Sequence record: SRR20825010_2783 | Length of the DNA: 43,418 bases | Reading direction: 5' to 3' (one strand) | Shown: positions 20,912-32,867 of the stretch, piece after piece | Layout: each line of letters starts with the position of its first letter | Numbering within the stretch: the first letter of the stretch is position 1 | Position numbers and translations under genes: made by a program | Notes under the pieces: model-generated | Seen by the model: the letters and a program-made list of their open reading frames with translations, nothing else | Databases searched by the model: none | What the model was told of the DNA's origin: nothing

Positions 20912-22210
20912 ATGCCGACAGTTTATATGGGGATGAGCGCAGACCTGCTGCACCCGGGCCACGTGAATATTATCAGGAAAGCGGCCGAGCTTGGTGATCT
21001 CACCATCGGCCTGCTGACCGACAGCGCCATCGCAAGTTACAAGCGCCTGCCCTTCCTCACCTATGAGCAGCGCAAAAGCGTGGTGGAAAACATCAAGGGC
21101 GTGGTGCGCGTTGTACCGCAGGAGACACTCAATTATGAGCCCAACCTGCGCACCTATAAACCCGAAATCGTTGTGCATGGGGACGACTGGAAAACAGGCG
21201 TGCAGCAAAGAACCCGCGCGCGGGTTATTGAAGTGCTGGCGGAATGGGGCGGCAAGCTGGTTGAGTTTCCCTATACCGAAGGCATTTCCTCAACCCAGCT
21301 TCACGGCAGCATCAAGGAAGTGGGCACCACCCCGGACATCCGCCGCCGCACGCTTAAACGCCTGATCGACGCCAAGCCTATCGTGCGCATCATGGAAGCC
21401 CACAACGGCATCTCCGGCCTTATTGTTGAGCATGCCAAGGCTTCCAGCGAGGGCCGCACGCTTGAGTTTGACGGCATGTGGGGCAGCAGCCTCACGGAAT
21501 CCACCGTGAAGGGCAAACCCGATATCGAAGTGGTGGATATCTCCACCCGGCTCTCAACCCTGAATGAGATTTTTGAGGTCACCACCAAGCCGCTGATTTT
21601 TGATGGCGACACTGGCGGCAAGCCCGAACATTTTGCCTTCACGGTGCGCTCGCTGGAACGTCTCGGCGTCTCCGCCGTTATTATCGAGGACAAGGTCGGC
21701 TTGAAGAAAAATTCCCTGTTCGGTAATGACGTGGCACAGCAGCAAGCCAGCATAGAAGATTTCTGCGACAAGATCCGCACCGGCAAGGCTTCTCAGGTTA
21801 CCCGTGACTTCATGATCATCGCGCGCATTGAGAGCCTGATCCTTGATCAAGGACTTGAGGATGCCATCACGCGGGCAAAAGCCTATCTGGAGGCCGGAGC
21901 AGACGGCATCATGATCCACAGCCGCCAGAAGTCTCCTGACGAGATTTTCGCTTTCTGCGAGATGTATGCAGCACTGGACACAGACAAACCGCTCGTGGTG
22001 GTGCCTTCAAGCTTCAATGCGGTTTATGAGCATGAACTGCAGGAACGCGGCGTGAGAATCGTTATATATGCCAACCAGCTTCTGCGCGCGGCGTACCCCA
22101 GCATGATGAAGGTGGCTGAAAGCATCCTCACCCATGGAAGGTCGGCGGAAAGCAGCGAGCTTTGCATGCCAATCAAGGAAATCCTCGACCTGATACCCGG
22201 GACACGCTGA
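20912..22210 (+). CDS. aepX: Phosphoenolpyruvate mutase with N-terminal cytidylyltransferase domain
   Basis: N-terminal DLLHPGH (HxGH) and GISST CyTase motifs; PepM-specific [10 protein letters not shown] (EDKx5NS); DGDTGG. Confidence 0.97.
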
Positions 22211-23337
22211 TGATTGAACCGCAGGAATTTTATACAGAGCTGCAACGGGCCGGGGTGTCGTTTTTCACCGGTGTACCAGATTCACTGCTCAAAAGTTTTT
22301 GCGCCTATGTCACCGACACCATGCCGTCGGAGCAGCATATCATTGCCGCGAATGAGGGTGGCGCTGTAGGCATCGCCCTTGGCTATCATATGGCCACAGG
22401 GCAGGTACCGCTCGTCTACATGCAGAACTCAGGCCTTGGCAATATCGTCAACCCTGTGCTCTCGCTGGCGGACAGGGAAGTATACGCGACCCCCATGCTG
22501 CTGCTTATCGGCTGGCGCGGCCAACCCGGTGTGAAAGACGAACCACAGCACGTGAAACAGGGTCGTGTGATGTGCGCCATGCTGGATGCCATGGAAATCC
22601 CCTTCGCCAACATCGGGCATGACGGTGCGAGCGCCAAGGCGGCGCTGGATGGTGCGCTCAAGTATATTTCCGAACATAACGCACCTTATGCGTTGCTGGT
22701 CGAAAAAGGCGTCTTCGCTGACTATAAACTCGCCAGCACCGTTGAAGACCTGCCCATGACACGGGAAGATGCCATCAAGGCTGTCATCAGCACCCTACCG
22801 ATTGATGCCGCCGTGGTTGGCACAACAGGCATGGCATCACGCGAGCTGTTTGAAGCGCGCGCGCACAAAGGCACCGGCCATCACCGGGATTTCCTTACCG
22901 TTGGTGGTATGGGGCACGCGTCGCAAATCGCCCTTGGCATCGCGCTTAACCAGCCTGACCGCACCGTTGTGTGCCTTGATGGTGACGGCGCAGCGCTCAT
23001 GCATATGGGGGCCATGGCCATTATCGCGAACCAGGCACCAGATAACTTCATTCATGTTGTGATCAACAACGGGGTACACGGCTCTGTGGGCGGCCAACCA
23101 ACCGTGGCGCGCGATATCACCATGCCCAGCATAGCCGAAGGCTGCGGCTATAAGGCTGTGCATAGTGTGGATACAGAGGCCGCGCTTGTTGCGCTGCTGG
23201 GTGGCGGCCTGCCTTGCCCCGCCTTCATTGAGGTCAATGTGAAACAGGGGCACCGTGCAGACCTCGGGCGGCCCACGTCCAGCCCACAGGAGAACAAGGC
23301 TGAGTTTATGCGCTTCCTGAAAGGCAGCCAAAACTGA
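22210..23337 (+). CDS. aepY: Phosphonopyruvate decarboxylase
   Basis: FTGVPDSLLK, ANEGGA, QNSGLGN, DEPQH, TTGMASREL, DGDGAALMHMG; TGATG coupling to pepM. Confidence 0.96.
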   Translation: MIEPQEFYTELQRAGVSFFTGVPDSLLKSFCAYVTDTMPSEQHIIAANEGGAVGIALGYHMATGQVPLVYMQNSGLGNIVNPVLSLADREVYATPMLLLIGWRGQPGVKDEPQHVKQGRVMCAMLDAMEIPFANIGHDGASAKAALDGALKYISEHNAPYALLVEKGVFADYKLASTVEDLPMTREDAIKAVISTLPIDAAVVGTTGMASRELFEARAHKGTGHHRDFLTVGGMGHASQIALGIALNQPDRTVVCLDGDGAALMHMGAMAIIANQAPDNFIHVVINNGVHGSVGGQPTVARDITMPSIAEGCGYKAVHSVDTEAALVALLGGGLPCPAFIEVNVKQGHRADLGRPTSSPQENKAEFMRFLKGSQN

Positions 23338-24437
23338 TGACAGACCAGAAGCAAATATCATGGGCAGAGCTGGGACGGGATTACCTGAGCCACGCCCGTG
23401 GTATATTTCTGGTTGCTGGCACCGGGTCTTTCTCTGCCTCCGGCGCTAAAGCCAAGTTCAGCGCCGTGAGTGGTGACATTCCAGCGGTGCGCTTCTCGGA
23501 CTTTACAGAAAACCCGCAGTTGAGCGAGATCAGCGCGGGTGTAAGGCTTTTTGAGAAAAGTGGTTGCGACGTTATTGTGGCCATTGGTGGCGGCAGCTCA
23601 ATTGATATTGCCAAATCTGTCCATATTCTCGCGGGCCACGCGACCAGCGAGCATGCAGCCATACTCAGGGGCGAAAAAGACCTCGAACCCGCAGTGGCAG
23701 GGCGCGCGTTTATCGCCGTACCCACGACCTTTGGCACGGGATCGGAAAGCACGCAGTTTGCAGCCGTATATATCGGGGATGCCAAATACTCGCTTTCGCA
23801 CCCATGCGGTCTGCCGGGCGCCTATGTGTTAGACCCGGCCCTTGCGCTATCCGCACCCGCCGTCATTCGCGCGAGCACCGCGATTGATGCACTTTGCCAG
23901 GCCATCGAATCTTACTGGGCGAAAGATGGCAGCAAGGAAAGCCGCGCTTACGCAGCCAAAGCCATCCCGCTGCTTCGGGATAATATTGAGGCTTATGTGA
24001 GCAGCGATGACTTGGATGTTGCCGCTAACATGGCAGAGGCCGCCAACCTGTCTGGCCGCGCCATCAACATCTCAAAAACCACAGCGCCGCACGCGCTCTC
24101 TTACGGTATCACCAAGCGATACGGCGTGGCCCATGGTCAGGCCGTGGCGCTTACCCTGCCTGCCTTTTTTACCCTGAACGCAGACCGCGGGGACGCTGAC
24201 ACCAAGGCCCGCATGCGAGAGATATTTGACCTTCTTGGCGTCAAGGACGGTGCAGCGGCAAAAGTCTGGTTTACCGGTCTTCTGACTGCAACCGGCCTGA
24301 AGACACGCCTGCTCGATATCACCTCCGTCAGCGCAGATGACGCGGAAGAGCTTGCCGCCCAAGTCAACCTTGAGCGGCTTGGCAATCACCCGGTGACCCT
24401 TACAAGCAACGACCTGATCGCAGCGCTGCTGGCCTAG
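23337..24437 (+). CDS. Phosphonoacetaldehyde reductase (iron-containing alcohol dehydrogenase, PhpC/FomC-like)
   Basis: AIGGGSSIDIAK, PTTFGTGSE, DALCQAIESYW, INISKTTAPHALSY, HGQAV; translationally coupled to ppd. Confidence 0.9.
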   Translation: MTDQKQISWAELGRDYLSHARGIFLVAGTGSFSASGAKAKFSAVSGDIPAVRFSDFTENPQLSEISAGVRLFEKSGCDVIVAIGGGSSIDIAKSVHILAGHATSEHAAILRGEKDLEPAVAGRAFIAVPTTFGTGSESTQFAAVYIGDAKYSLSHPCGLPGAYVLDPALALSAPAVIRASTAIDALCQAIESYWAKDGSKESRAYAAKAIPLLRDNIEAYVSSDDLDVAANMAEAANLSGRAINISKTTAPHALSYGITKRYGVAHGQAVALTLPAFFTLNADRGDADTKARMREIFDLLGVKDGAAAKVWFTGLLTATGLKTRLLDITSVSADDAEELAAQVNLERLGNHPVTLTSNDLIAALLA

Positions 24438-24521
24438 GCCAGCTTCAATTATACTGAGTTGTCATACAAGCTAAACATGGGCGCTGTAGCCAAAGGCCGA
24501 TTATCGTTTGCAGGAAAGCCG

Positions 24522-25703
24522 ATGCCGCAGCACCCAAGCACCACCAATATTCGCACAGCGCTTCGCACGCTATGGCCGCTTTTTGCGGCTGTTGCTGCAT
24601 TTGTCGCAGCGGGTAGCCTGCAAAACGCACTGGTAGCCTATGACCTCGCGCAGGCGGGTGCGTCTTCCCTGATGACGGGCGTTGTGATGTCTGCCTATTT
24701 TGCCGGTTTTTTGCTGGGCGCTTATACAGCACCACGGCTCGCGGCCCGGCTTGACCTTGCACGGCTCTTTCTCATCATCACCGCCCTTTATGCACCGTGT
24801 ACGGCGCTGTTTGCGCTCGCAGGCAATATGCTGCCGGGGCTGATAGTATTGCAGATGGCCACCGGGTTCGGTATCGCCTGCCAATATGTGGTGATTGAAA
24901 GTTGGCTCAACCTTGAAGCTAACAGCAGCTACCGCGCGCGGCTCTTTGGCACCTATATGTTTTTCTGGTTCTTTGGTGCTGGTGGCGGCCCGCTCCTTAT
25001 TGGGCTGCACCCTATAGGGCATGAACCCTTGTTCCTGCTCGCAGCCGGGCTTGTCGCCTTTTCTGGCCTTATGCTCCATCGGCTCAAAGATAAAGCCTGG
25101 CGGGGGGCTATTTCGCTCCCCATGCCGCTCAGGCCGGTGCTGGAGGCCAGCCCTTCCGGTTTTTGCGCAACGCTGCTGGTGGGGGTAAGTTTCGGTGCCG
25201 TGCTGGGCCTAACCGCCGCCTACGGGCAGCACAACGGCCTGAGCCCGACTGAAACGTCGTTTTTTGTTGCAGCGTTCATCTTTGGGGGTGGTCTGACCCA
25301 ATATATGGCGGGCGCGCTTTCTGACCGGCTGGACCGTCGCCTTGTGTTGACAGTCTTCACCTTCCTCGCCGCGCTCAGCGCGCTGCTTCTGCTTAACGCA
25401 AATACCAAGCTGGGCGTGATGGCATGCGCCACCGCGTTTGGCGCGTTCGCCCTGCCCATCTATGCACTTGCTGTTGCGCAAATTCAGGACAGCGTGGCAG
25501 AGGACAGGCGCATCGCCACCAGCGGCGGGCTTTTGATCCTGAACGGGTTCGGGTCCTTTATCGGGCCGCTTGTGGTTGGCGGCATGAGTGGCTGGTGGGG
25601 CGACGCAGCGCTTTTCATCACCCTTGCGCTTGTGCATTCAGCTATCGGCGGCATTTACCTCTGCCGTTTGCTTGTTCGTCGGTTGCGGCCTGTGGCCGTC
25701 TAG
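24522..25703 (+). CDS. MFS transporter (YcaD-like)
   Basis: MSAYFAGFLLG, YVVIESWLN, GALSDRLDRR motifs; about 12 TM. Start ATG 24522 follows AGGA (ORF open from 24459). Confidence 0.88.
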   Translation: MPQHPSTTNIRTALRTLWPLFAAVAAFVAAGSLQNALVAYDLAQAGASSLMTGVVMSAYFAGFLLGAYTAPRLAARLDLARLFLIITALYAPCTALFALAGNMLPGLIVLQMATGFGIACQYVVIESWLNLEANSSYRARLFGTYMFFWFFGAGGGPLLIGLHPIGHEPLFLLAAGLVAFSGLMLHRLKDKAWRGAISLPMPLRPVLEASPSGFCATLLVGVSFGAVLGLTAAYGQHNGLSPTETSFFVAAFIFGGGLTQYMAGALSDRLDRRLVLTVFTFLAALSALLLLNANTKLGVMACATAFGAFALPIYALAVAQIQDSVAEDRRIATSGGLLILNGFGSFIGPLVVGGMSGWWGDAALFITLALVHSAIGGIYLCRLLVRRLRPVAV

Positions 25704-25768
25704 CGATTGACCCTTTCATGAAAAATATGGCAGCACTACAGGACCCCTAATTTCGGAGTAGATGTTTT

Positions 25769-26353
25769 ATGCCCAAGCTCGGCATGCAGCCCATCAGGCG
25801 GCAGCAATTGATTGACGCGACGATCCGCACCATCGCTCGTGTGGGATACTCTGAAACAACCGTGAGCCGGATTGCAAAAGAAGCCGGGCTTTCCGCCGGT
25901 ATTATCTCGCATTATTTTGGGGGCAAGCAGGCGCTTCTTGAAGCCAGCATGGCGCGGGTATTGTTTGAGCTGCATGATGCTTTCCTCAAACACCTTGAGG
26001 AGGCCACGAGCCCCCGCGAGCGGCTATCTGCGATCATCGATACAAATTTTGAGGATGACCAGTACAAACCCGAAATTGTGCGGGCGTGGCTTTCCTTCTG
26101 GGCGCAAGTGCCCTTCTCACCGGAGCTGAAACGCCTGCAGGCCATTTATAACCGACGCCTGATTTCAAACCTCGCGCATGAGCTTCGCCAGATTGTGCCC
26201 GTGGACGCCGCGCGCGACGGCGCGGAGATATTCGCCTCCCTCATCGACGGCTTCTGGTTGCGCTCTACCATGGCCGAGGCAGCACCGAACTTGCCCGAAA
26301 TCAGACGGCAGATCGAACAGAGCATCGACCGTTATATCCGCGCCATGGCCTAG
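25769..26353 (+). CDS. betI: Choline-responsive TetR-family repressor BetI
   Basis: MPKLGMQPIRRQQLI..GIISHYFGGK..WLSFW..RLQAIYNRRLISNL..LIDGFWLR, characteristic of BetI. Confidence 0.95.
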   Translation: MPKLGMQPIRRQQLIDATIRTIARVGYSETTVSRIAKEAGLSAGIISHYFGGKQALLEASMARVLFELHDAFLKHLEEATSPRERLSAIIDTNFEDDQYKPEIVRAWLSFWAQVPFSPELKRLQAIYNRRLISNLAHELRQIVPVDAARDGAEIFASLIDGFWLRSTMAEAAPNLPEIRRQIEQSIDRYIRAMA

Positions 26354-26521
26354 CCACATACCGCGCCACACCTCCGCCGCAAAAACGCGCACACTCGCGC
26401 CGCACTTTCACGCACACTTTCGCCACACATGCCACACTTCCCTGAGTGCTAAAGCCCGCAAAAGCTACCGCGCCAAGCCTCACACGCCAAGGCTGGTAGC
26501 CCACGGCAAAGTTTTGCAGAT

Positions 26522-26550
26522 GTCTCATATTTCCGTCACCAAACCGTAAT
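26522..26550 (+). promoter_or_regulatory. Putative Pho box (PhoB site), three units with 11-bp period
   Basis: GTCTCAT-ATTT-CCGTCAC-CAAA-CCGTAAT compared with consensus CTGTCAT-N4-CTGTCAY; upstream of the TBDR-phoD operon. Confidence 0.6.
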
Positions 26551-26579
26551 GAATTCAGCGCATTAAGGCTGCGGCAGAC

Positions 26580-26607
26580 TTTTTATTGAATGATTGTTCA
26601 ATAAAAA
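26580..26607. promoter_or_regulatory. Putative BetI operator
   Basis: TTTTTATTGAA-TGATTG-TTCAATAAAAA with perfect 11-bp arms; ATTGA-N8-TCAAT fits BetI-type sites; betI lies just upstream. Confidence 0.8.
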
Positions 26608-26643
26608 GGGGCATCAATTTTATCATTTCAAGGGCGCAGAATT

Positions 26644-28980
26644 ATGACAGTTAACATGACAAAAAAAATGCTACTGGGGGCGTGCAGTCTTTTTGCCGTT
26701 TCCGCTGTAGCACACTCGGAGGAAACTGCTGCGGACGCCTATGCGGATGACGCTGGCGTTGAAGAAATCGTTGTTTCTGCAGAGAAAACCACCTTCGCGA
26801 ACAACGCAACAGACAGCATCATGCGAGACCAGGAGCCTGATGCAGCAAGCGTGCTTTCCGTGATCGATAACCTGCCGGGCATTTTTGTTTCTGAAGGCGG
26901 TACCTTCGGCTCTGATGACTGGTCCACCACCCTGTCCATCCGTGGTTTCACTGTAAGTCTTTCAGAACAACAGGTTGGCATGACAATCGACGGTCTGCCA
27001 AACGGTAACTCCAACTATGGCGGCGGCGCAAAAGCCAACCGCTATATCGATAGCGAAAACCTCGCGCGCGCTGTGGTATCGCAGGGCACTGCCGATATCG
27101 CCTCCCCTTCCCACGAGGCGCTTGGCGGCACCATCGATTTTGTTACCAGCAACCCATTTGAAGAACAGCGTTTCTGGGCCAGCCTGAGCGTGGGTGAAAA
27201 CAACGCACAGCGGTATTTCTTCCGCTATGACACCGGTGAAATTGCTTCCGGTACAAGGGCTTACCTCAGCTACTCCAACACCACAAACGATGCCTGGATT
27301 GGTGATGCTGGCGGCACAACACGGGACCACTTCGCTGCAAAAATTGTGTCTGAGCAGGACGAATGGACCTTCACCGGTCGCCTGTCATGGGACGATACCC
27401 ACGAGAATAACTACCAGCGTATCTCGCTCGCCCAGTTTGAAGAAGACCCGGATTGGGACCGCCTGACAGACACCATCACCGGCATTCCGTATGTTGATCA
27501 GGTTTATCGTCCGGGCTGGGGCACGCTGCGCGAGAACTGGTTTGCCTATGTAAAAGCGGAATATGAGGGCGATAATTTCGACTTCACCGTTGCGCCTTAC
27601 TATCACAAAAACGAAGGTCGCGGCGACTGGATCCCGCCTTACCTTGTTGCAGTAGCCGGTGGTGACACACAATCGAACGGCACCATTTTTGGCGGAAGCG
27701 CAGCGGCTTCATATACTTATACGGACTCGAACGGCACGCCACTTGCGCCAATCGACGGCTGCACAGCCACCCTCACCTTCCCTTATGGCGGGGGCGCACC
27801 AGCCAACAACCCGGCATGTTATCAGGCAGGTGCTATCCCTGTTGGTTCATACCGTCACACCCACTACGCCAAAACCCGTATCGGCGCGACGGCTGACGCC
27901 GCATACCGCATTGGCGAGATGAACACGCTTCGTGCTGGTATCTGGTGGGAAAATTCAGACCGTGACGAATCGCGCGACTGGCACAAAGTCATTGATTCTA
28001 CGGTAGGAATCGAATTTGACGAGACAGCCTACTGGCGTCAGTATGACCGAAACTTCGTAACCGACACCTTCATGGCTTATGCAGAAGACACGTTTGAGCT
28101 GGGTGATCTGACCCTGCGCGGCGGCGTGAAAAAGTTCTTCGTTGACCTTGAGCGGAACGACAATTTCGGCTCTGAAGCCACACAGTCGCTCGAGTCCAAT
28201 TCTGATCTTCTGTTCACCGCCGGTGCGATCTATAACCTGACAGACGACTTTGAAGTGTTCGCCGGTTTCTCGCAAAACTTCGCGGCGATCAAGGACGGTA
28301 TCATCGAAGGTCAGGCAAGTGCGACAAACCCGAACATCCCTGACCTTGAAGGCGAAACCGCCGACAACTACGACATGGGGTTCCGCTTCAATAATGACTG
28401 GCTGCGCGCGACGCTCACCGGTTATTACATCAAGTTCAACAACCGCATCACCTTTGTATCCGAAGGCGATCCGGTTGGCGGTGTTGACTACCTTGAAGAA
28501 GGTGAAGGCACATACCTGAACGTGGGCGGCATCAAGTCTAAAGGTATTGAGGCCAGCATCTCTGCTGACTTTGCCAGCTACTGGAACCTCTATAGCTCCC
28601 TCACCATCAACAGTTCTGAGTATACCGAAACCACAGCAGAGGTTGTTGAAGGCAACAAAGTGGCCCTCGCTCCCGAGTTCCAACTTGTTGGCACGCTCAG
28701 CTACTTCAAGGACGGTGTGCGGGCAGGTGTTTCCGCCAAGCATGTTGGCGAACGTTATGGCGATTTTGCCAATACGCAGGAGCTGCCATCTTTCACGCTG
28801 GTTGATGCATGGGTTGGTTACACCGTGGACGAGAATGTCATCCCCGGTATCCAGACCATTGATGTGAGCCTGAACATCACCAACCTCACCAACAAGAACT
28901 ACCTTGGTGGTGGTACGCCGGGCTCATATTTCATCGGCGCTGATCGCCAGGTCACCGCAAACCTGACGCTCAAGTTCTAA
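26644..28980 (+). CDS. TonB-dependent receptor
   Basis: Signal peptide, EEIVVSA TonB box, LSIRGF..TIDGLP plug, NITNLTNKNY, terminal LKF. Confidence 0.93.
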   Translation: MTVNMTKKMLLGACSLFAVSAVAHSEETAADAYADDAGVEEIVVSAEKTTFANNATDSIMRDQEPDAASVLSVIDNLPGIFVSEGGTFGSDDWSTTLSIRGFTVSLSEQQVGMTIDGLPNGNSNYGGGAKANRYIDSENLARAVVSQGTADIASPSHEALGGTIDFVTSNPFEEQRFWASLSVGENNAQRYFFRYDTGEIASGTRAYLSYSNTTNDAWIGDAGGTTRDHFAAKIVSEQDEWTFTGRLSWDDTHENNYQRISLAQFEEDPDWDRLTDTITGIPYVDQVYRPGWGTLRENWFAYVKAEYEGDNFDFTVAPYYHKNEGRGDWIPPYLVAVAGGDTQSNGTIFGGSAAASYTYTDSNGTPLAPIDGCTATLTFPYGGGAPANNPACYQAGAIPVGSYRHTHYAKTRIGATADAAYRIGEMNTLRAGIWWENSDRDESRDWHKVIDSTVGIEFDETAYWRQYDRNFVTDTFMAYAEDTFELGDLTLRGGVKKFFVDLERNDNFGSEATQSLESNSDLLFTAGAIYNLTDDFEVFAGFSQNFAAIKDGIIEGQASATNPNIPDLEGETADNYDMGFRFNNDWLRATLTGYYIKFNNRITFVSEGDPVGGVDYLEEGEGTYLNVGGIKSKGIEASISADFASYWNLYSSLTINSSEYTETTAEVVEGNKVALAPEFQLVGTLSYFKDGVRAGVSAKHVGERYGDFANTQELPSFTLVDAWVGYTVDENVIPGIQTIDVSLNITNLTNKNYLGGGTPGSYFIGADRQVTANLTLKF

Positions 28981-28994
28981 GTTTCGAAGCAACT

Positions 28995-29024
28995 GGTGGG
29001 TGGCTTAGGCCGCCCGCCCTTTTT
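28995..29024 (+). terminator. Intercistronic hairpin with U-tract between TBDR and phoD
   Basis: GGTGGGTGGC-TTAG-GCCGCCCGCC followed by CTTTTT. Confidence 0.55.
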
Positions 29025-29039
29025 CCCGGAGACCCCAAC

Positions 29040-30140
29040 ATGATCACGCGCCGCACCAGCATGAAACTCATGGCTGCCACTGCAGTTACGACGGCTATGG
29101 CCCCCAATCTTTTGGCGGCGAGCACCAAAAAATCCACAACAGAAACGGGCGCAAGTGTCTCACGCATTCTGTTTGGCTCCTGCGCCAATCAAGACAAGGC
29201 CCAGCCGATCTGGGCGCCTATCAACGCACTTGAGCCAGACCTGTTTGTCTTTCTGGGTGATAATATCTACGGCGACACGCGTGACATGAGCGTTTTGGCT
29301 GCTAAATATCAGAAATTCGCCGCAGTCGAAGGTTTCAAAACGCTTCGTGACAATACGCCTGTTATCGCCACATGGGATGACCATGATTATGGCGAGAATG
29401 ATGCGGGAGTTGAGTATCCTGAAAAGGAAAAATCCAAAGAGCTGTTTCTGAACTTCTGGAATGAGCCCAAGGGTAGCGCCCGGCGCCGCGATGACGACGG
29501 CATCTACACTTCATATACCTATGGCGAAGCGGGCCAGCGCACGCAGGTGATCCTGCTTGACTTAAGGTGGAACCGCACACCACTCACCCACGTGAGCCAA
29601 GCCGCAGCCAAACGCCGCGACCAAATGGGTTTTGGCCCTTATCTGCCTACTAGGGCAGAGGGCGCTACCATGTTGGGCGAAAAACAGTGGGCGTGGCTTG
29701 AAGGTGAACTCAGGAAACCCGCTGACCTACGCATTATCGGCTCCAGCCTGCAGTTTATTTCAACCTTTCCCGGCTGGGAAGCATGGAGCCTGTTCCCCAC
29801 TGAGCGCAAACGCATGATAGACCTGATCCGCAAGACGAATGCTCAGGGTGTACTGTTCATCAGCGGTGATACTCACTGGGCGGAGATATCGCGTCAGGAC
29901 GACCAACATACGCCCTACCCCGTGTATGACTTCACCTCAAGCGGCCTGACGGAAACCTGGCACAACATAAGCCCGAACGCCTACCGGCTGCCGGGCTGTA
30001 TGTTCACCAAGGCAAACTTTGGCATCATAGAGGTGGACTGGAATGTGCCTGACCCTCATATCGTGCTGCAGGCCAGAGAGGTGACAGGGAACCCCGTGTT
30101 TGAGAAGTCTCTGCTGCTGAGCCACCTTTCCTCCCGGTGA
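29040..30140 (+). CDS. phoD: Alkaline phosphatase D family phosphoesterase, Tat-exported
   Basis: TRRTSMK Tat signal; FGSC, LGDNIYGD, WDDHD, LDLR, SGDTH motifs. Confidence 0.93.
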   Translation: MITRRTSMKLMAATAVTTAMAPNLLAASTKKSTTETGASVSRILFGSCANQDKAQPIWAPINALEPDLFVFLGDNIYGDTRDMSVLAAKYQKFAAVEGFKTLRDNTPVIATWDDHDYGENDAGVEYPEKEKSKELFLNFWNEPKGSARRRDDDGIYTSYTYGEAGQRTQVILLDLRWNRTPLTHVSQAAAKRRDQMGFGPYLPTRAEGATMLGEKQWAWLEGELRKPADLRIIGSSLQFISTFPGWEAWSLFPTERKRMIDLIRKTNAQGVLFISGDTHWAEISRQDDQHTPYPVYDFTSSGLTETWHNISPNAYRLPGCMFTKANFGIIEVDWNVPDPHIVLQAREVTGNPVFEKSLLLSHLSSR

Positions 30141-30171
30141 CGCCGGTTCAGTTGATAAACAAGCAGAGCAG

Positions 30172-30198
30172 AAGGGATCAGGTCATGCCTGATCCCTT
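30172..30198. terminator. Terminator hairpin between convergent phosphoesterase genes
   Basis: AAGGGATCAGG-TCATG-CCTGATCCCTT perfect 11-bp stem. Confidence 0.75.
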
Positions 30199-30210
30199 TC
30201 AGCATTCTGA

Positions 30211-31356
30211 TTACTGGCCGATCATGCCATCAATCGGTTCACCGGCTTTCAGGCTTTCATGGCTTCCCTCATAGTCATAGCCAAGCAATTTCGCAGCCGT
30301 CGCTGCTACTTGAGTGAGCGCAACCGGTTCACCGCCTGAAATCTCACCAAGCACAGGAGTATCCGGGCCAACAGCTGCCATCCAGATAGCGTCATCACCC
30401 TTAAAGTTGCTCACCGCTTTGGTTCCGTCCTCGCGGGTATAAGGGAAACGGCCATGATGCTTCCATGCTTCAAGGCTATCGCTGCCCCGGCCATGGTCTG
30501 TGGTGATAAGCAGGGTGGTTTTCCCTCTATAACGAGCGTCACTTTCAAGCCACGCCCATAATTCAGCAATAGCCTGATCACTGCGGTGTGCTGCATGCGC
30601 ATATTGGTCATAGTGCCCGTCATGCGCAAAATCATCTGTTTCGCCGAGAGAGATATAAACGAACTTCATCTTCTCGCTTGCGAGTGCCGCGCGCGCGAAC
30701 CCCATCGTGAAAGCATCAAGCCGCACCGTGTCCCACGGGCTTGGGATTTTTTCCTGCAGGTTATTAAGCAAGCCAACACTCTGGCCACGGCCATCATAGG
30801 CTTCAAAACCTGCATTCACCGGCACGCCAGAGCGTTCTTCATTTATAATGTAGGGAAACACGTCCCACGACCCGAAAGCAGCAACCTTGCCCGCGTTCTC
30901 CGGCATCGCATTCAACCACTCAAGGACCGTGCGGTTGGGGTTGGGAAACTTGTCATTGCTGGTAATGCGTGCGTCATCCGCAAAGCCTGTGAGGATCTCG
31001 CTATAGCCGGGGTAGGAGAAATGATAGGCGTTAGTGAGTGTGCCAACGCTGCCTTTGTCCCTGTTACCGTATAGCTGCCCGTGGGCCGCAAGCGTGTTCC
31101 AGAAAAATGGCATCAAAGCTGAACGCGAAGCCTCCGGTGCTTCAAGCCCGAACTTGGTCTTGAAGGCATCATGTGTTTTTTTGTGAGCGATATAGGCTTC
31201 CTGATCAAAGAAGGCTTTATCCGCGCCCCTGAACACTTCCTGCCACCTAAGGCCATCAATGGTAATCAGAACCACTGTTTCTGTTTTGGTAGGTGCAGCA
31301 TGGGCTGATGTCACAGCCGCAAAAATAAACATGAATGACGCCAGAAAGGTGCGCAC
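30211..31356 (-). CDS. Secreted alkaline-phosphatase-superfamily phosphoesterase
   Basis: Signal peptide from GTG 31356 (GGGAG RBS); metal and nucleophile motifs ITIDGLR, FSYPGY, GETDDFAH, TTDHGR. Confidence 0.85.
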   Translation of the reverse strand: MRTFLASFMFIFAAVTSAHAAPTKTETVVLITIDGLRWQEVFRGADKAFFDQEAYIAHKKTHDAFKTKFGLEAPEASRSALMPFFWNTLAAHGQLYGNRDKGSVGTLTNAYHFSYPGYSEILTGFADDARITSNDKFPNPNRTVLEWLNAMPENAGKVAAFGSWDVFPYIINEERSGVPVNAGFEAYDGRGQSVGLLNNLQEKIPSPWDTVRLDAFTMGFARAALASEKMKFVYISLGETDDFAHDGHYDQYAHAAHRSDQAIAELWAWLESDARYRGKTTLLITTDHGRGSDSLEAWKHHGRFPYTREDGTKAVSNFKGDDAIWMAAVGPDTPVLGEISGGEPVALTQVAATAAKLLGYDYEGSHESLKAGEPIDGMIGQ

Positions 31357-31455
31357 AGGTTTCTCCCTTGATCCAATTTCGCTACCCACCGGATAGCATA
31401 TAGCTTTCAAGCGGGACTGTGCGCCTTTCTGATGAAAGTTTTTTGGCAAAACAAA

Positions 31456-31483
31456 TTTTTATTGAACCCTTGTTCAGCAAAAA
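31456..31483. promoter_or_regulatory. Second putative BetI operator
   Basis: TTTTTATTGAACCCTTGTTCAGCAAAAA, 23/28 identical to the site at 26580-26607; 100 bp upstream of the phosphoesterase start. Confidence 0.62.
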
Positions 31484-31486
31484 TCT

Positions 31487-32278
31487 TCAAACCGACAGCG
31501 CCTTGCGGGTGGCGTCATTGGCGGGAAAGAAGGACTCGATGGCTATCTCGGATAGCGTCACATCGACGGGTGTGCCAAAAACGGTCGTGGTAGAAAAGAA
31601 AGACAGCTTGCCATCTGGCACTAGAAATTCGAACGGCACAAATACGTCACCGTAACCTTCATCTGGCGCGTTCAGGTCGCTATCCGGGCATGGGTATGAC
31701 TTCAACTCATCCATAAGGTCTATCAGCACTTCGTCGGCTGTAACATTGATCTGGTGGCGAAGTCGCTCAAGCAGATGTTTCTTCCATTGGGGTAAATTTA
31801 CGATCTGTGGCGCGAGCCCACCGGGGTGCAGCGACAAGCGTAATACGTTAATGGATTGCGCCAGCAAACTCTGTTCTGTCACACCCGCCAGCATGGCCGG
31901 TACCGCGGCATTTGCCGCCAACATGTTCCAGTGCCGATCGATCGCGATTGCCGGGTAAGGCTCATGCCCCTTCAGCAAAAGATCGATCGCCGCGCGCGCC
32001 GCCGTGAGCGACGGGTCATCAAGATCGCGTGCCAGATATAAGGGAGCATATCCAGCAGCCAGAAGAAGGGTATTTCTCTCCCTCAGCGGCACGTCAAGGC
32101 ACTCTGTCAGGTGAATGACCATGTCACGGCTAGGCGTCGACCTGCCGGTTTCAATAAAACTCAAATGCTTTTGCGAAATTTCAGCCTCCAGGGAAAAATC
32201 CAGTTGGCTCATACGGCGCCTGTTGCGCCATTCTTTCAGTTGCCCGCCAAAGACCTGTGCACTTCTCTCAGTCGTCAT
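31487..32278 (-). CDS. XRE-HTH / MmyB-like transcriptional regulator
   Basis: LKEWRNRRRMSQLDF..HLSFIETGRS.PSR HTH; HEPYPA..DRHWN; LSFFSTTTVFGTPVDVTLSE.AIE.FFPA. Confidence 0.92.
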   Translation of the reverse strand: MTTERSAQVFGGQLKEWRNRRRMSQLDFSLEAEISQKHLSFIETGRSTPSRDMVIHLTECLDVPLRERNTLLLAAGYAPLYLARDLDDPSLTAARAAIDLLLKGHEPYPAIAIDRHWNMLAANAAVPAMLAGVTEQSLLAQSINVLRLSLHPGGLAPQIVNLPQWKKHLLERLRHQINVTADEVLIDLMDELKSYPCPDSDLNAPDEGYGDVFVPFEFLVPDGKLSFFSTTTVFGTPVDVTLSEIAIESFFPANDATRKALSV

Positions 32279-32368: not shown

Positions 32369-32450
32369 GGCAAGCCGCTCGTGATCGCTGATCCTGACAT
32401 TAGACAACAACTGGAACTCGATCACATTACCCCAACCAATGGAGGTTACC

Positions 32451-32867
32451 ATGAGCAAGACAGCACAAACATTTCCACTTCTGAAATATGCGTTGATTGG
32501 CGACGCAATCGCGAGCGGCGGCACCGGCCTTCTGATGGCAGCAGGCGCAGGGTTCCTAGGCGACCTGCTTGGCCTGTCAGTGTCCCTTCTTACCTATGCG
32601 GGGCTTTTCCTTCTGCCCTACGCGGCGGCGGTCGCCTTTGTCGGCACCCGCAAGGCAATTAACCGCCGCGCGGTATGGCCTATCGTTATCCTTAACCTGT
32701 TGTGGGTTGTCGATAGCTTCGTGCTGCTGGCGAGCCTGGAGCCTGCACCAACGATCTTTGGCGTGGTGTTTGTCGCCTTTCAGGCCGTCGTGGTGCTCGC
32801 TTTCGCGGTCGCTCAGGCAATAGGCCTGCGGCAGCAAAAAAACAGTGCGGAATTCATGACCGCATAA
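32451..32867 (+). CDS. Small integral membrane protein (about 4 TM)
   Basis: GGAGG RBS; LKYALIGDAIASG..NLLWVVDS; divergent from the MmyB-like regulator. Confidence 0.8.
   Translation: MSKTAQTFPLLKYALIGDAIASGGTGLLMAAGAGFLGDLLGLSVSLLTYAGLFLLPYAAAVAFVGTRKAINRRAVWPIVILNLLWVVDSFVLLASLEPAPTIFGVVFVAFQAVVVLAFAVAQAIGLRQQKNSAEFMTA

Follow-up and report, generated by a model that had tools for sequence, protein, structure and literature searches.

A candidate nutrient-scavenging module that links a BetI-family repressor to a TonB-dependent receptor and two predicted exported phosphoesterases in marine Kordiimonas

The BetI repressor of Ruegeria pomeroyi is released by choline and was placed on an ATTGACG*CGTCAAT site by electrophoretic mobility shift assay (EMSA) and footprinting, the canonical betI box being ATTGA-N4-TCAAT (PMC12442346). 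Pseudomonas aeruginosa possesses a "liberate and grab" circuit (PlcH, PchP, GbdR, BetI) in which enzymes that set choline free from phospholipids of the host are induced by products of choline metabolism (PMC10418997). Phosphatidylcholine is the preferred substrate of certain phospholipases D of the PhoD superfamily, which liberate choline from it (PMC13435022), and PhoX, PhoD, PhoA, and PafA are named as likely choline routes in marine phospholipid headgroup turnover, with limited kinetics for PhoD (PMC10132767). Here we analyze a 43,418-nt stretch of DNA (record SRR20825010_2783; hereafter the window) in which a betI gene stands next to genes for a TonB-dependent outer-membrane receptor (TBDR) and two predicted exported phosphoesterases. 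On balance, we consider it probable that an MFS transporter, BetI, the TBDR, a PhoD-like protein, and a second esterase form a transferable five-gene nutrient-scavenging module under joint phosphate and choline control, with a choline phosphoester as its cargo. The regulatory part of this proposal is well supported by genome comparison, and the choline-phosphoester substrate is plausible.

Gene families were called from Pfam and NCBIfam profile scores against curated cut-offs. The host of the window is a marine Kordiimonas (Alphaproteobacteria), and whole-genome comparisons used the Kordiimonas assembly G000 (4.18 Mb); 167 positions disagree between it and the window, including one within the spacer of the palindrome described below. 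On the plus strand the order is a TPR protein, phosphonate genes, the MFS gene, betI, the TBDR gene, and the PhoD-like gene; the esterase and an MmyB-like regulator are encoded on the minus strand (Table 1). The BetI protein exceeds the cut-offs of both BetI models (201 bits for TIGR03384; 118 bits for NF001978, where it scores 230) and contains PF00440 and PF13977. The original prediction had described this betI as standing without betBA or betT alongside, and family searches indeed found none of betA, betB, or betT in the window; BetT is encoded elsewhere in the genome (715 bits, cut-off 695).

A perfect ATTGA-N8-TCAAT palindrome had been reported upstream of the TBDR gene. It is real, and its arms extend to 12 nt (26579-26590 and 26597-26608; operator O1) with 100% complementarity. 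The sequence TATTGAA-N6-TTCAATA occurs once in the genome, and the looser ATTGA-N8-TCAAT occurs 13 times. The similar palindrome claimed for the convergent esterase gene is an imperfect copy with 13-nt arms that are 85% complementary (operator O2); it shares the spacing of O1, and the esterase GTG start at 31356 follows it after about 100 nt. A TTGAA-N6-TTCAA-like core was found in the esterase promoters of 5 out of 6 relatives, the sequence of K. lipolytica (L018) being cut at the site, and a third perfect operator copy precedes the MFS gene in K. lipolytica and in a Kordiimonas metagenome-assembled genome (L017).

The arrangement betI-TBDR-PhoD with a convergent esterase recurs in 6 out of 8 Kordiimonas-type loci retrieved with the receptor. 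Among 32 Kordiimonas genomes, the receptor was found in 13, a HapR-like TetR regulator in 29, and BetI in 10, each time adjoining the TBDR gene. The 11 betI-linked receptor promoters come from 10 genomes, one of which has two copies; every one of these promoters contains an exact TTGAA-N6-TTCAA, 58-70 nt upstream of the receptor start codon, with invariant arms and differing spacers. Two of the 13 TBDR promoters examined lack the operator, namely that of genome G020 and that of a 48%-identical paralogue in genome G035. G020 encodes a receptor that is 83% identical, has no BetI at 1e-25, and has kept the Pho-like repeats and lost the palindrome. In K. sediminis no protein reaches the BetI cut-off, the HapR-like TetR gave no match, and the palindrome is absent. 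All five genes recur in two Emcibacter genomes of 98-99% completeness, with identities of 54-60% (28% for the MFS protein); the receptor promoters of these genomes contain GTCAA-N6-GTCAC-N6-GTCAT repeats together with CTGAA-N6-TTCAATAAAAA, and their MFS-betI pair is preceded by CTGAA-N6-TTCAA in one genome and by a weaker TTAAA-N6-TTCAA in the other. The pattern in G020, K. sediminis, and Emcibacter indicates that the operator travels with betI and not with the HapR-like gene. Synteny and motif conservation in relatives had been proposed as a check on the locus: the order MFS-betI-TBDR-PhoD with the esterase is kept in 10 out of 32 Kordiimonas genomes and in both Emcibacter genomes, with an exact operator in the former and operator-like sites in the latter, and an MFS-betI-TBDR core is found in Cellvibrionaceae.

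The Pho-box-like repeat with an 11-bp period that had been noticed upstream of the TBDR gene is present as GTCTCAT-ATTT-CCGTCAC-CAAA-CCGTAAT, i.e. three 7-nt repeats separated by 4-nt spacers, with 4 mismatches to CTGTCAT-N4-CTGTCAT. The E. coli-type Pho box has 300 sites in the genome at up to 3 mismatches, and the window repeat alone is not significant; it carries weight because it is conserved in relatives, not because of the match at a single site. Such repeats are kept in all betI-linked Kordiimonas promoters, in the betI-less promoter of G020, and in Emcibacter. Over 45 orthologous TBDR upstream regions, CTGTCAY occurs 17 times in the sense and 0 times in the antisense orientation (mean 1.9 and maximum 6 in 200 mononucleotide shuffles), and GTMAN-N6-GTMAN occurs 26 times in 22 loci and once in antisense (shuffle mean 0.9, maximum 4), a strand-specific enrichment. 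The genome encodes PhoB (342 bits, cut-off 296) and PhoU (209 bits, cut-off 130) in a cluster whose order fits phoR-pstSCAB-phoU-phoB, the remaining genes being named by position and size only, and the pstS promoter of the same genome reads GTGTCATTTTCCTGTAAC. No sigma-70 consensus promoter was found upstream of the receptor gene, which fits an activator-dependent promoter and proves nothing. Since Pho-type repeats occur in TBDR promoters both with and without BetI, the Pho-type module appears to be the wider entity and BetI an extra layer in some lineages.

Two other ways of searching for Pho sites were abandoned. A weight matrix built from 7 orthologous Pho-like sites recovered only itself in a genome scan and was over-fitted to kin; it ranked phoR 331st, and the pstS range scanned with it, where the best score was -7.5, did not take in the site visible by eye. 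A degenerate pattern that merged the pstS site with that of the TBDR promoter matched 3 intergenic positions, but this test is circular. A separate Pho-box-like sequence, CTTTCACCCTACCGTCAC, precedes a 328-aa open reading frame (ORF) at G000:1096750, about 2 kb past the end of the window.

A search with an alignment built on the PhoD-like protein returned 80 loci, 47 of which have a receptor of at least 39% identity upstream on the same strand. The order receptor-esterase-PhoD on one strand was found in 25 gammaproteobacterial loci, including those of Pseudoalteromonas, Colwellia, Thalassotalea, Psychrosphaera, Endozoicomonas, Aliiglaciecola, and Fluctibacter, and a BetI (40-52% identical) adjoins the module in 9 gammaproteobacterial loci. 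As a second, independent case, all 8 BetI-linked loci of the Alteromonadales type have TTAATTGA-N4-TCAATTAA upstream of the receptor gene, free of mismatches in 7 and with a single mismatch in the other, and this N4 box (ATTGA-N4-TCAAT) is often followed by CTGTCAY. Of the 46 loci whose upstream sequence was long enough, 15 are BetI-linked, and 14 of these have an N4 or N8 box with at most one mismatch, vs 3 of the 31 unlinked ones (no BetI within 7 kb), these three being one perfect N4 box and two one-mismatch N8 matches. The module BetI was the sole BetI over the cut-off in 5 out of 5 such genomes searched. In Alteromonas sp. A079 and Fluctibacter halophilus the operon is fused to the choline genes in the order TBDR-(esterase)-PhoD-betI-betB-betA, followed by a BCCT-like gene, and the fused genes score over their cut-offs (betB 806 bits; betA 794 and 767 bits); two further records (L223 and L238) show receptor-PhoD-betI-betB-betA, and Pseudoteredinibacter (L210) shows MFS-betI-TBDR. 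The tie between BetI and the TBDR and phosphoesterase genes, as originally predicted, recurs in many other marine bacteria and holds with respect to a synteny that spans two alphaproteobacterial and several gammaproteobacterial families, to the loss of the operator along with betI, and to the canonical boxes in Alteromonadales, but the operator in the window is of the non-canonical N8 type.

Two of these records deserve separate mention. The L223 record is titled Flavobacterium sp. W21_SRS_FM6, and its betB and betA are 79-82% identical to those of Alteromonas sp. A079; its BetI groups inside Alteromonas, so that either the taxon label looks doubtful or the stretch looks recently transferred. 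An uncultured Alteromonadaceae locus (L132) has a perfect betI box, TTAATTGAACGTTCAATTAT, 137 nt before the receptor match and no BetI within 7 kb; BetI may act there from a distance.

The module-linked BetI proteins match BetI models at 1e-20 or better (13 out of 13 aligned). We built a maximum-likelihood tree of 40 BetIs whose rows were hand-picked from module and BetI loci, with 59 other BetI loci omitted. A clade termed T1 (support 98/94) unites the BetIs of Kordiimonas, Emcibacter, and two Cellvibrionaceae (L143 and L210) and is nested in an alphaproteobacterial-type group beside Thalassospira, whose betIBA operons bear N4 boxes. The Alteromonadales module-linked BetIs, termed T2, are placed among ordinary betIBA-linked BetIs. 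Sites of the N8 type accompany T1 in Kordiimonas (11 out of 11), in L210 (TTGAA-N6-TTCAA without mismatch in the betI-receptor interval), in L143 (a perfect ATTGA-N8-TCAAT), and in Emcibacter, where the left arm is degenerate. T1, T2, and canonical-type BetIs all have the recognition helix GIISHYFGGK unchanged, so that the two clades differ in the spacing of the site and not in its half-sites. New here is that the Kordiimonas-type BetI makes up a separate clade whose putative operator exceeds the canonical box by 4 bp and has a LuxR/HapR-like spacing. Within T1, the gammaproteobacterial L143 and L210 pair with the alphaproteobacterial Emcibacter L050 and L106 (94/80); this nesting, along with the MFS-betI-receptor order of L210, suggests that the module moved between Alpha- and Gammaproteobacteria. 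Neither T1 nor canonical-type BetIs deviate at the aromatic residues W107, F110, W111, and W163, a suggestive hint that choline may release T1 BetI from DNA; a sequence search of the PDB turned up no solved BetI-choline complex.

We propose that under low phosphate PhoB~P would activate both enzyme promoters, and that the local T1 BetI would occupy the TTGAA-N6-TTCAA operator at both of them. At the TBDR promoter this operator would lie just 3' of the Pho box, at the point where transcription probably begins, and at the esterase promoter it would abut the Pho-like element. Choline, or a close quaternary-amine product, would bind BetI and take it off the DNA. The receptor would import a choline-bearing phosphoester into the periplasm, for which glycerophosphocholine, phosphocholine, and a lysolipid or headgroup fragment of phosphatidylcholine are candidates, and the two esterases would free phosphate and choline there. 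Phosphate would then enter via Pst and the organic product via the MFS transporter or BetT, keeping BetI off its operators in a form of product induction. The assignment of a choline ester as cargo is made because of the association with BetI, betBA, and BCCT-like genes, not because of enzyme specificity. A more specific version, which we regard as possible but doubtful, is that the TBDR imports phospho(di)esters derived from eukaryotic phosphatidylcholine and that BetI was recruited twice, once in Alteromonadales with the N4 box and once as a dedicated clade with a 4-bp wider site that moves with the module between classes. We know of no TBDR for which choline phospho(di)esters are an established class of cargo.

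The TBDR has plug and barrel domains (PF07715 and PF00593), a signal peptide, and a TonB-box-like EEIVVSA; it is only distantly related to solved siderophore receptors and reached no NCBIfam equivalog for any known cargo. The MFS gene adjoins betI in L014, L016-L018, L104, both Emcibacter loci, and Pseudoteredinibacter L210, and we count the MFS transporter and the convergent esterase as additional members of the module. Both enzymes are predicted to be exported, as first proposed, the PhoD-like protein by a Tat-type signal (N-terminus MITRRTSMKL, with TRR) and the esterase by a Sec signal ending in AHA. The PhoD-like protein scores well above the PF09423 cut-off of 27 bits, and its structural model (pLDDT 86) has B. 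subtilis PhoD (2yeq) as its top fold (E 2.4e-15, TM 0.57), followed by purple acid phosphatases. In sequence it matches 2yeq at a phmmer E of 1.3e-6 and aligns to chain residues 194-401 only, which suggests that the N-terminal part is missing from the 366-aa protein. The esterase ORF is open to 31449, the conserved start being the GTG at 31356 with a Shine-Dalgarno sequence kept in relatives. It scores 32 bits for PF01663 (cut-off 23), and its model (pLDDT 94) resembles LtaS, NPP, and PafA at TM values of 0.47-0.58 only; a PDB sequence search gave no match at 0.01. Residues D34, S114, D241, H245, D287, H288, and H301 are invariant in 25 esterase homologues and by analogy would fit a two-metal site with a serine nucleophile. 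The two enzyme families are large and uncharacterized (>6,600 and >7,800 matches, named just "alkaline phosphatase (D) family protein"), and an Atlas search gave generic family names only. The TBDR and phoD genes had been described as an operon. A single transcription unit is likely, but transcription would have to read through a terminator-like hairpin in the gap between them.

Table 1 Features of the module and its surroundings in the window
Feature	Position	Strand	Evidence or remark
MFS inner-membrane transporter, first module gene	24459..25703	+	PF07690 98 bits
Promoter-like element 5' of betI, TTGACC ... TGGCAGCAC, without palindrome	25707..25736	+	By-eye conservation in 7/7 aligned Kordiimonas loci
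BetI-family TetR repressor, clade T1	25769..26353	+	TIGR03384 234 bits, TetR_N, TetR_C_6
Phased [C/G]CACA motif array	26354..26437	+	6 copies in the window
Pho-box-like triple direct repeat, 7 + 4 nt period	26522..26550	+	Conserved in relatives
CAGCGCATTAAG block, candidate -10 region (inferred)	26557..26568	+	Kept in aligned promoters
Putative operator O1, CTTTTTATTGAA-N6-TTCAATAAAAAG	26579..26608	+	Perfect 12-nt arms
TonB-dependent outer-membrane receptor (TBDR)	26644..28980	+	Plug and barrel domains
Terminator-like hairpin, TBDR/PhoD gap	28995..29018	+	10 pairs, 8 G-C, then T-run
Short PhoD-family metallophosphoesterase, 366 aa, Tat-type signal	29040..30140	+	PF09423 73 bits
Inverted repeat with perfect 11-nt arms, gap of the convergent gene pair; presumed bidirectional terminator	30172..30198	.	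Inverted-repeat search
381-aa alkaline-phosphatase-superfamily esterase, predicted exported	30211..31356	-	PF01663, PF01676; Sec signal
Pho-box-like element, esterase promoter (..CAAAAAACTTTCAT..)	31425..31452	-	Relatives show TGCAAAATTCCTGTCAT there; weak alone
Putative operator O2, ATTTTTGCTGAA-N6-TTCAATAAAAAT in minus-strand reading	31455..31484	-	13-nt arms, 85% complementary
MmyB-like HTH regulator, neighbour; module membership uncertain	31487..32278	-	PF17765 86 bits

Some neighboring features vary among relatives. A phosphonate-biosynthesis set (20912-24437) lies immediately 5' of the MFS gene and comprises a PEP mutase with an N-terminal cytidylyltransferase domain (20912-22210), a phosphonopyruvate decarboxylase (489 bits, cut-off 312), and an Fe-alcohol dehydrogenase; these genes adjoin the module only in the window strain (G000) and its closest relative, L014, so they look like an insertion at the upstream edge of the module. 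The MmyB-like regulator and a divergent 142-aa ORF (32439-32867) both stand beside the esterase gene in L014, L015, L016, and L020; no such regulator was seen beside the esterase in L018 or Emcibacter, and the L017 contig stops about 450 nt beyond the esterase match, too short to show this neighbor. The [C/G]CACA array has 4-9 copies in L014, L015, L016, and L020, with gaps of 11 nt or multiples thereof (11, 11, 11, 33, 11, and 11 in L016), vs about 1 copy in shuffled sequence, and was not found at the same place in L017 or L018. It may represent further binding sites of the OmpR/PhoB type. Tandem Repeats Finder reported nothing in the intergenic region.

Several observations weigh against joint phosphate and choline control of a choline-ester module, the most direct of which concern the operator. 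The window palindrome had been taken for a betI box, and it does contain canonical half-sites, but these stand 4 bp further apart (N8 vs N4). We compared 79 BetI loci of other genomes (BetI 43-57% identical to the window BetI): betA or betB adjoins betI in 69, and in 56 the 250 nt preceding betI include a perfect N4 box. The canonical N4 box is also present at the alphaproteobacterial Thalassospira BetI, which is 52% identical to the window BetI. An alignment of 7 Kordiimonas loci showed no conserved N4 or N8 box in the betI promoter, and an operator-like site was sought upstream of betT and not found. The sole perfect N4 box in the genome (G000:1773776) has no telling neighbors by ORF layout, the only information used, and no bet-related call; the other N8-like sites with at most 2 mismatches (G000:900560, 2409214, and 2630404) were set aside since they too have no telling neighbors by ORF layout alone. 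The N8 layout of the window palindrome equals that of the SmcR/LuxR consensus TTATTGATWWRWTWNTNAATAA, TTATTGA-N8-TCAATAA over 22 bp (PMC2859563).

This shared layout, and the presence in the genome of a HapR/LuxR-like TetR gene (G000:767938-768594; NF040929 98 bits, far below the cut-off of 350), meant that a different reading needed testing, in which the palindromes are sites of that regulator and BetI is a mere neighbor. The promoter of the HapR-like gene itself contains TTATTGAC-N6-ATCAATAA, the regulator is found in 29 out of 32 genomes of the genus, and its site (at most 2 mismatches) is present in 26 out of 29 Kordiimonas loci. However, G020 possesses the regulator (49% identity) and the 83%-identical TBDR, but neither palindrome nor BetI, and Emcibacter has the operator-like site with no match to the regulator at 1e-6. 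The two kinds of site also differ, the HapR-like ones having a conserved AATATT center and GAY/RTC and those of the module a free center and GAA/TTC. The HapR-like gene is divergent to a fatty-acid desaturase gene, as fits a local regulator, and the Alteromonadales orthologues of the module bear canonical betI boxes at the same place. Control by the HapR-like regulator is thus very improbable. As a separate observation, the region G000:767938-769885 holds a 22-bp box of the SmcR type, TTATTGAYAATATTRTCAATAA, in an alphaproteobacterium.

A second set of difficulties lies in the choline metabolism of the host. The best genome-wide matches to betA and betB reach 550 bits (cut-off 732) and 529 bits (cut-off 669), respectively; a betA-like GMC gene at G000:728320 was considered as a bet locus and rejected, its neighbor being a P450 gene. 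The T1 BetI may have changed its effector, in which case the module would scavenge esters other than those of choline, e.g. other phosphodiesters or phosphonate esters, polyol-phosphate polymers, or nucleic-acid fragments. A host without betA or betB over the cut-offs would agree with this, as would the altered operator geometry of T1 as a separate clade, the many orthologous operons without BetI (the majority), and the phosphonate-biosynthesis cluster directly 5' in the window strain. The nearest solved fold of the PhoD-like protein is moreover B. subtilis PhoD, an enzyme that acts on general diesters and teichoic acid. On the other hand, the T1 BetI scores above the BetI equivalog cut-off, its recognition helix and W107, F110, W111, and W163 are invariant with respect to canonical-type BetIs, Alteromonas and Fluctibacter have the orthologous operon joined to betIBA, and adjacency of the phosphonate genes is confined to G000 and its nearest relative. 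We consider a change of effector unlikely.

The remaining difficulties concern the breadth of the module. No BetI was found within 7 kb in 31 out of 46 orthologous loci, from which choline gating appears to be an add-on to a wider Pho-type module; in most lineages the module would thus operate independently of choline, and it may have a generic substrate. Neither enzyme has a close characterized relative (best folds at TM 0.5-0.58), and the PhoD-like protein falls short of the NCBIfam PhoD equivalog NF058638 (27 bits, cut-off 1000). Small choline esters should cross porins without a TBDR. Kin genomes are non-independent samples and inflate all of the counts given here, although the Pho hits nonetheless span several families. 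The module could accordingly be a general organophosphate scavenger of the Pho regulon, with BetI loosely tied to choline metabolism (phosphatidylcholine-rich detritus might, for example, signal organic phosphorus) and choline esters not its specific cargo. The occurrence of Pho-type repeats in promoters with and without BetI, the loci without a nearby BetI, and the broad specificity of both enzyme superfamilies would all be expected of such a scavenger. Against it stand the apparent double recruitment of BetI with different operators and gene orders, the physical fusion of the operon to betIBA and a BCCT-like gene, and the operators at up to three module promoters, and we judge it quite improbable.

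Choline-bearing phospholipids of phytoplankton are a large marine pool of organic phosphorus, nitrogen, and carbon, and to our knowledge their capture by heterotrophs at low concentration is poorly known. If the proposed choline-phosphoester module is real, its wide distribution (Alteromonadales, Kordiimonadales, Emcibacter, and Cellvibrionaceae) would provide candidate genes for this capture step and would connect the turnover of choline and glycine betaine with the phosphorus cycle. The related TetR repressors with identical half-sites spaced by N4 or N8 form a natural pair for studying how dimers set operator geometry, and the proposal is directly testable in cultured strains. Literature searches, with regulon databases outside their scope, returned no paper on this module or on a BetI-controlled TBDR, in line with the original statement that none had been characterized.

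The module resembles the betIBA/betT regulon of E. coli and R. pomeroyi (BetI1) in its BetI-family repressor, its recognition helix, and its ATTGA/TCAAT half-sites, but the half-sites are separated by N8 and the putative targets are a TBDR and two predicted exported phosphoesterases instead of betA, betB, and betT. With the P. aeruginosa circuit, the module would share the principle of liberating choline, sensing it, and inducing more, with BetI involved; that circuit, however, relies on two secreted enzymes, a phospholipase C and PchP, and on the AraC-type GbdR, and is not known to involve a TBDR or a BetI operator on the enzyme genes. PchP is a HAD-family phosphatase, and P. aeruginosa plcH also responds to phosphate starvation. 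TonB-dependent, SusCD-type loci of the Pho regulon in Bacteroidetes likewise combine outer-membrane uptake with phosphatases under phosphate limitation (PMC8115612), but with other receptor and enzyme families and without a known second, substrate-type repressor such as BetI. The PhoD-like protein has the superfamily and the metallophosphoesterase fold in common with the PhoD-type phospholipases D of Streptomyces (SchPLD and SaPLD) and with B. subtilis PhoD, but it is shorter (366 aa vs 522-527 residues in the 2yeq chain) and its sequence similarity is weak. Finally, the operators of LuxR, HapR, and SmcR have the same 22-bp layout as those of the module, which differ in that their center is unconserved and the regulator co-occurring with them is BetI.

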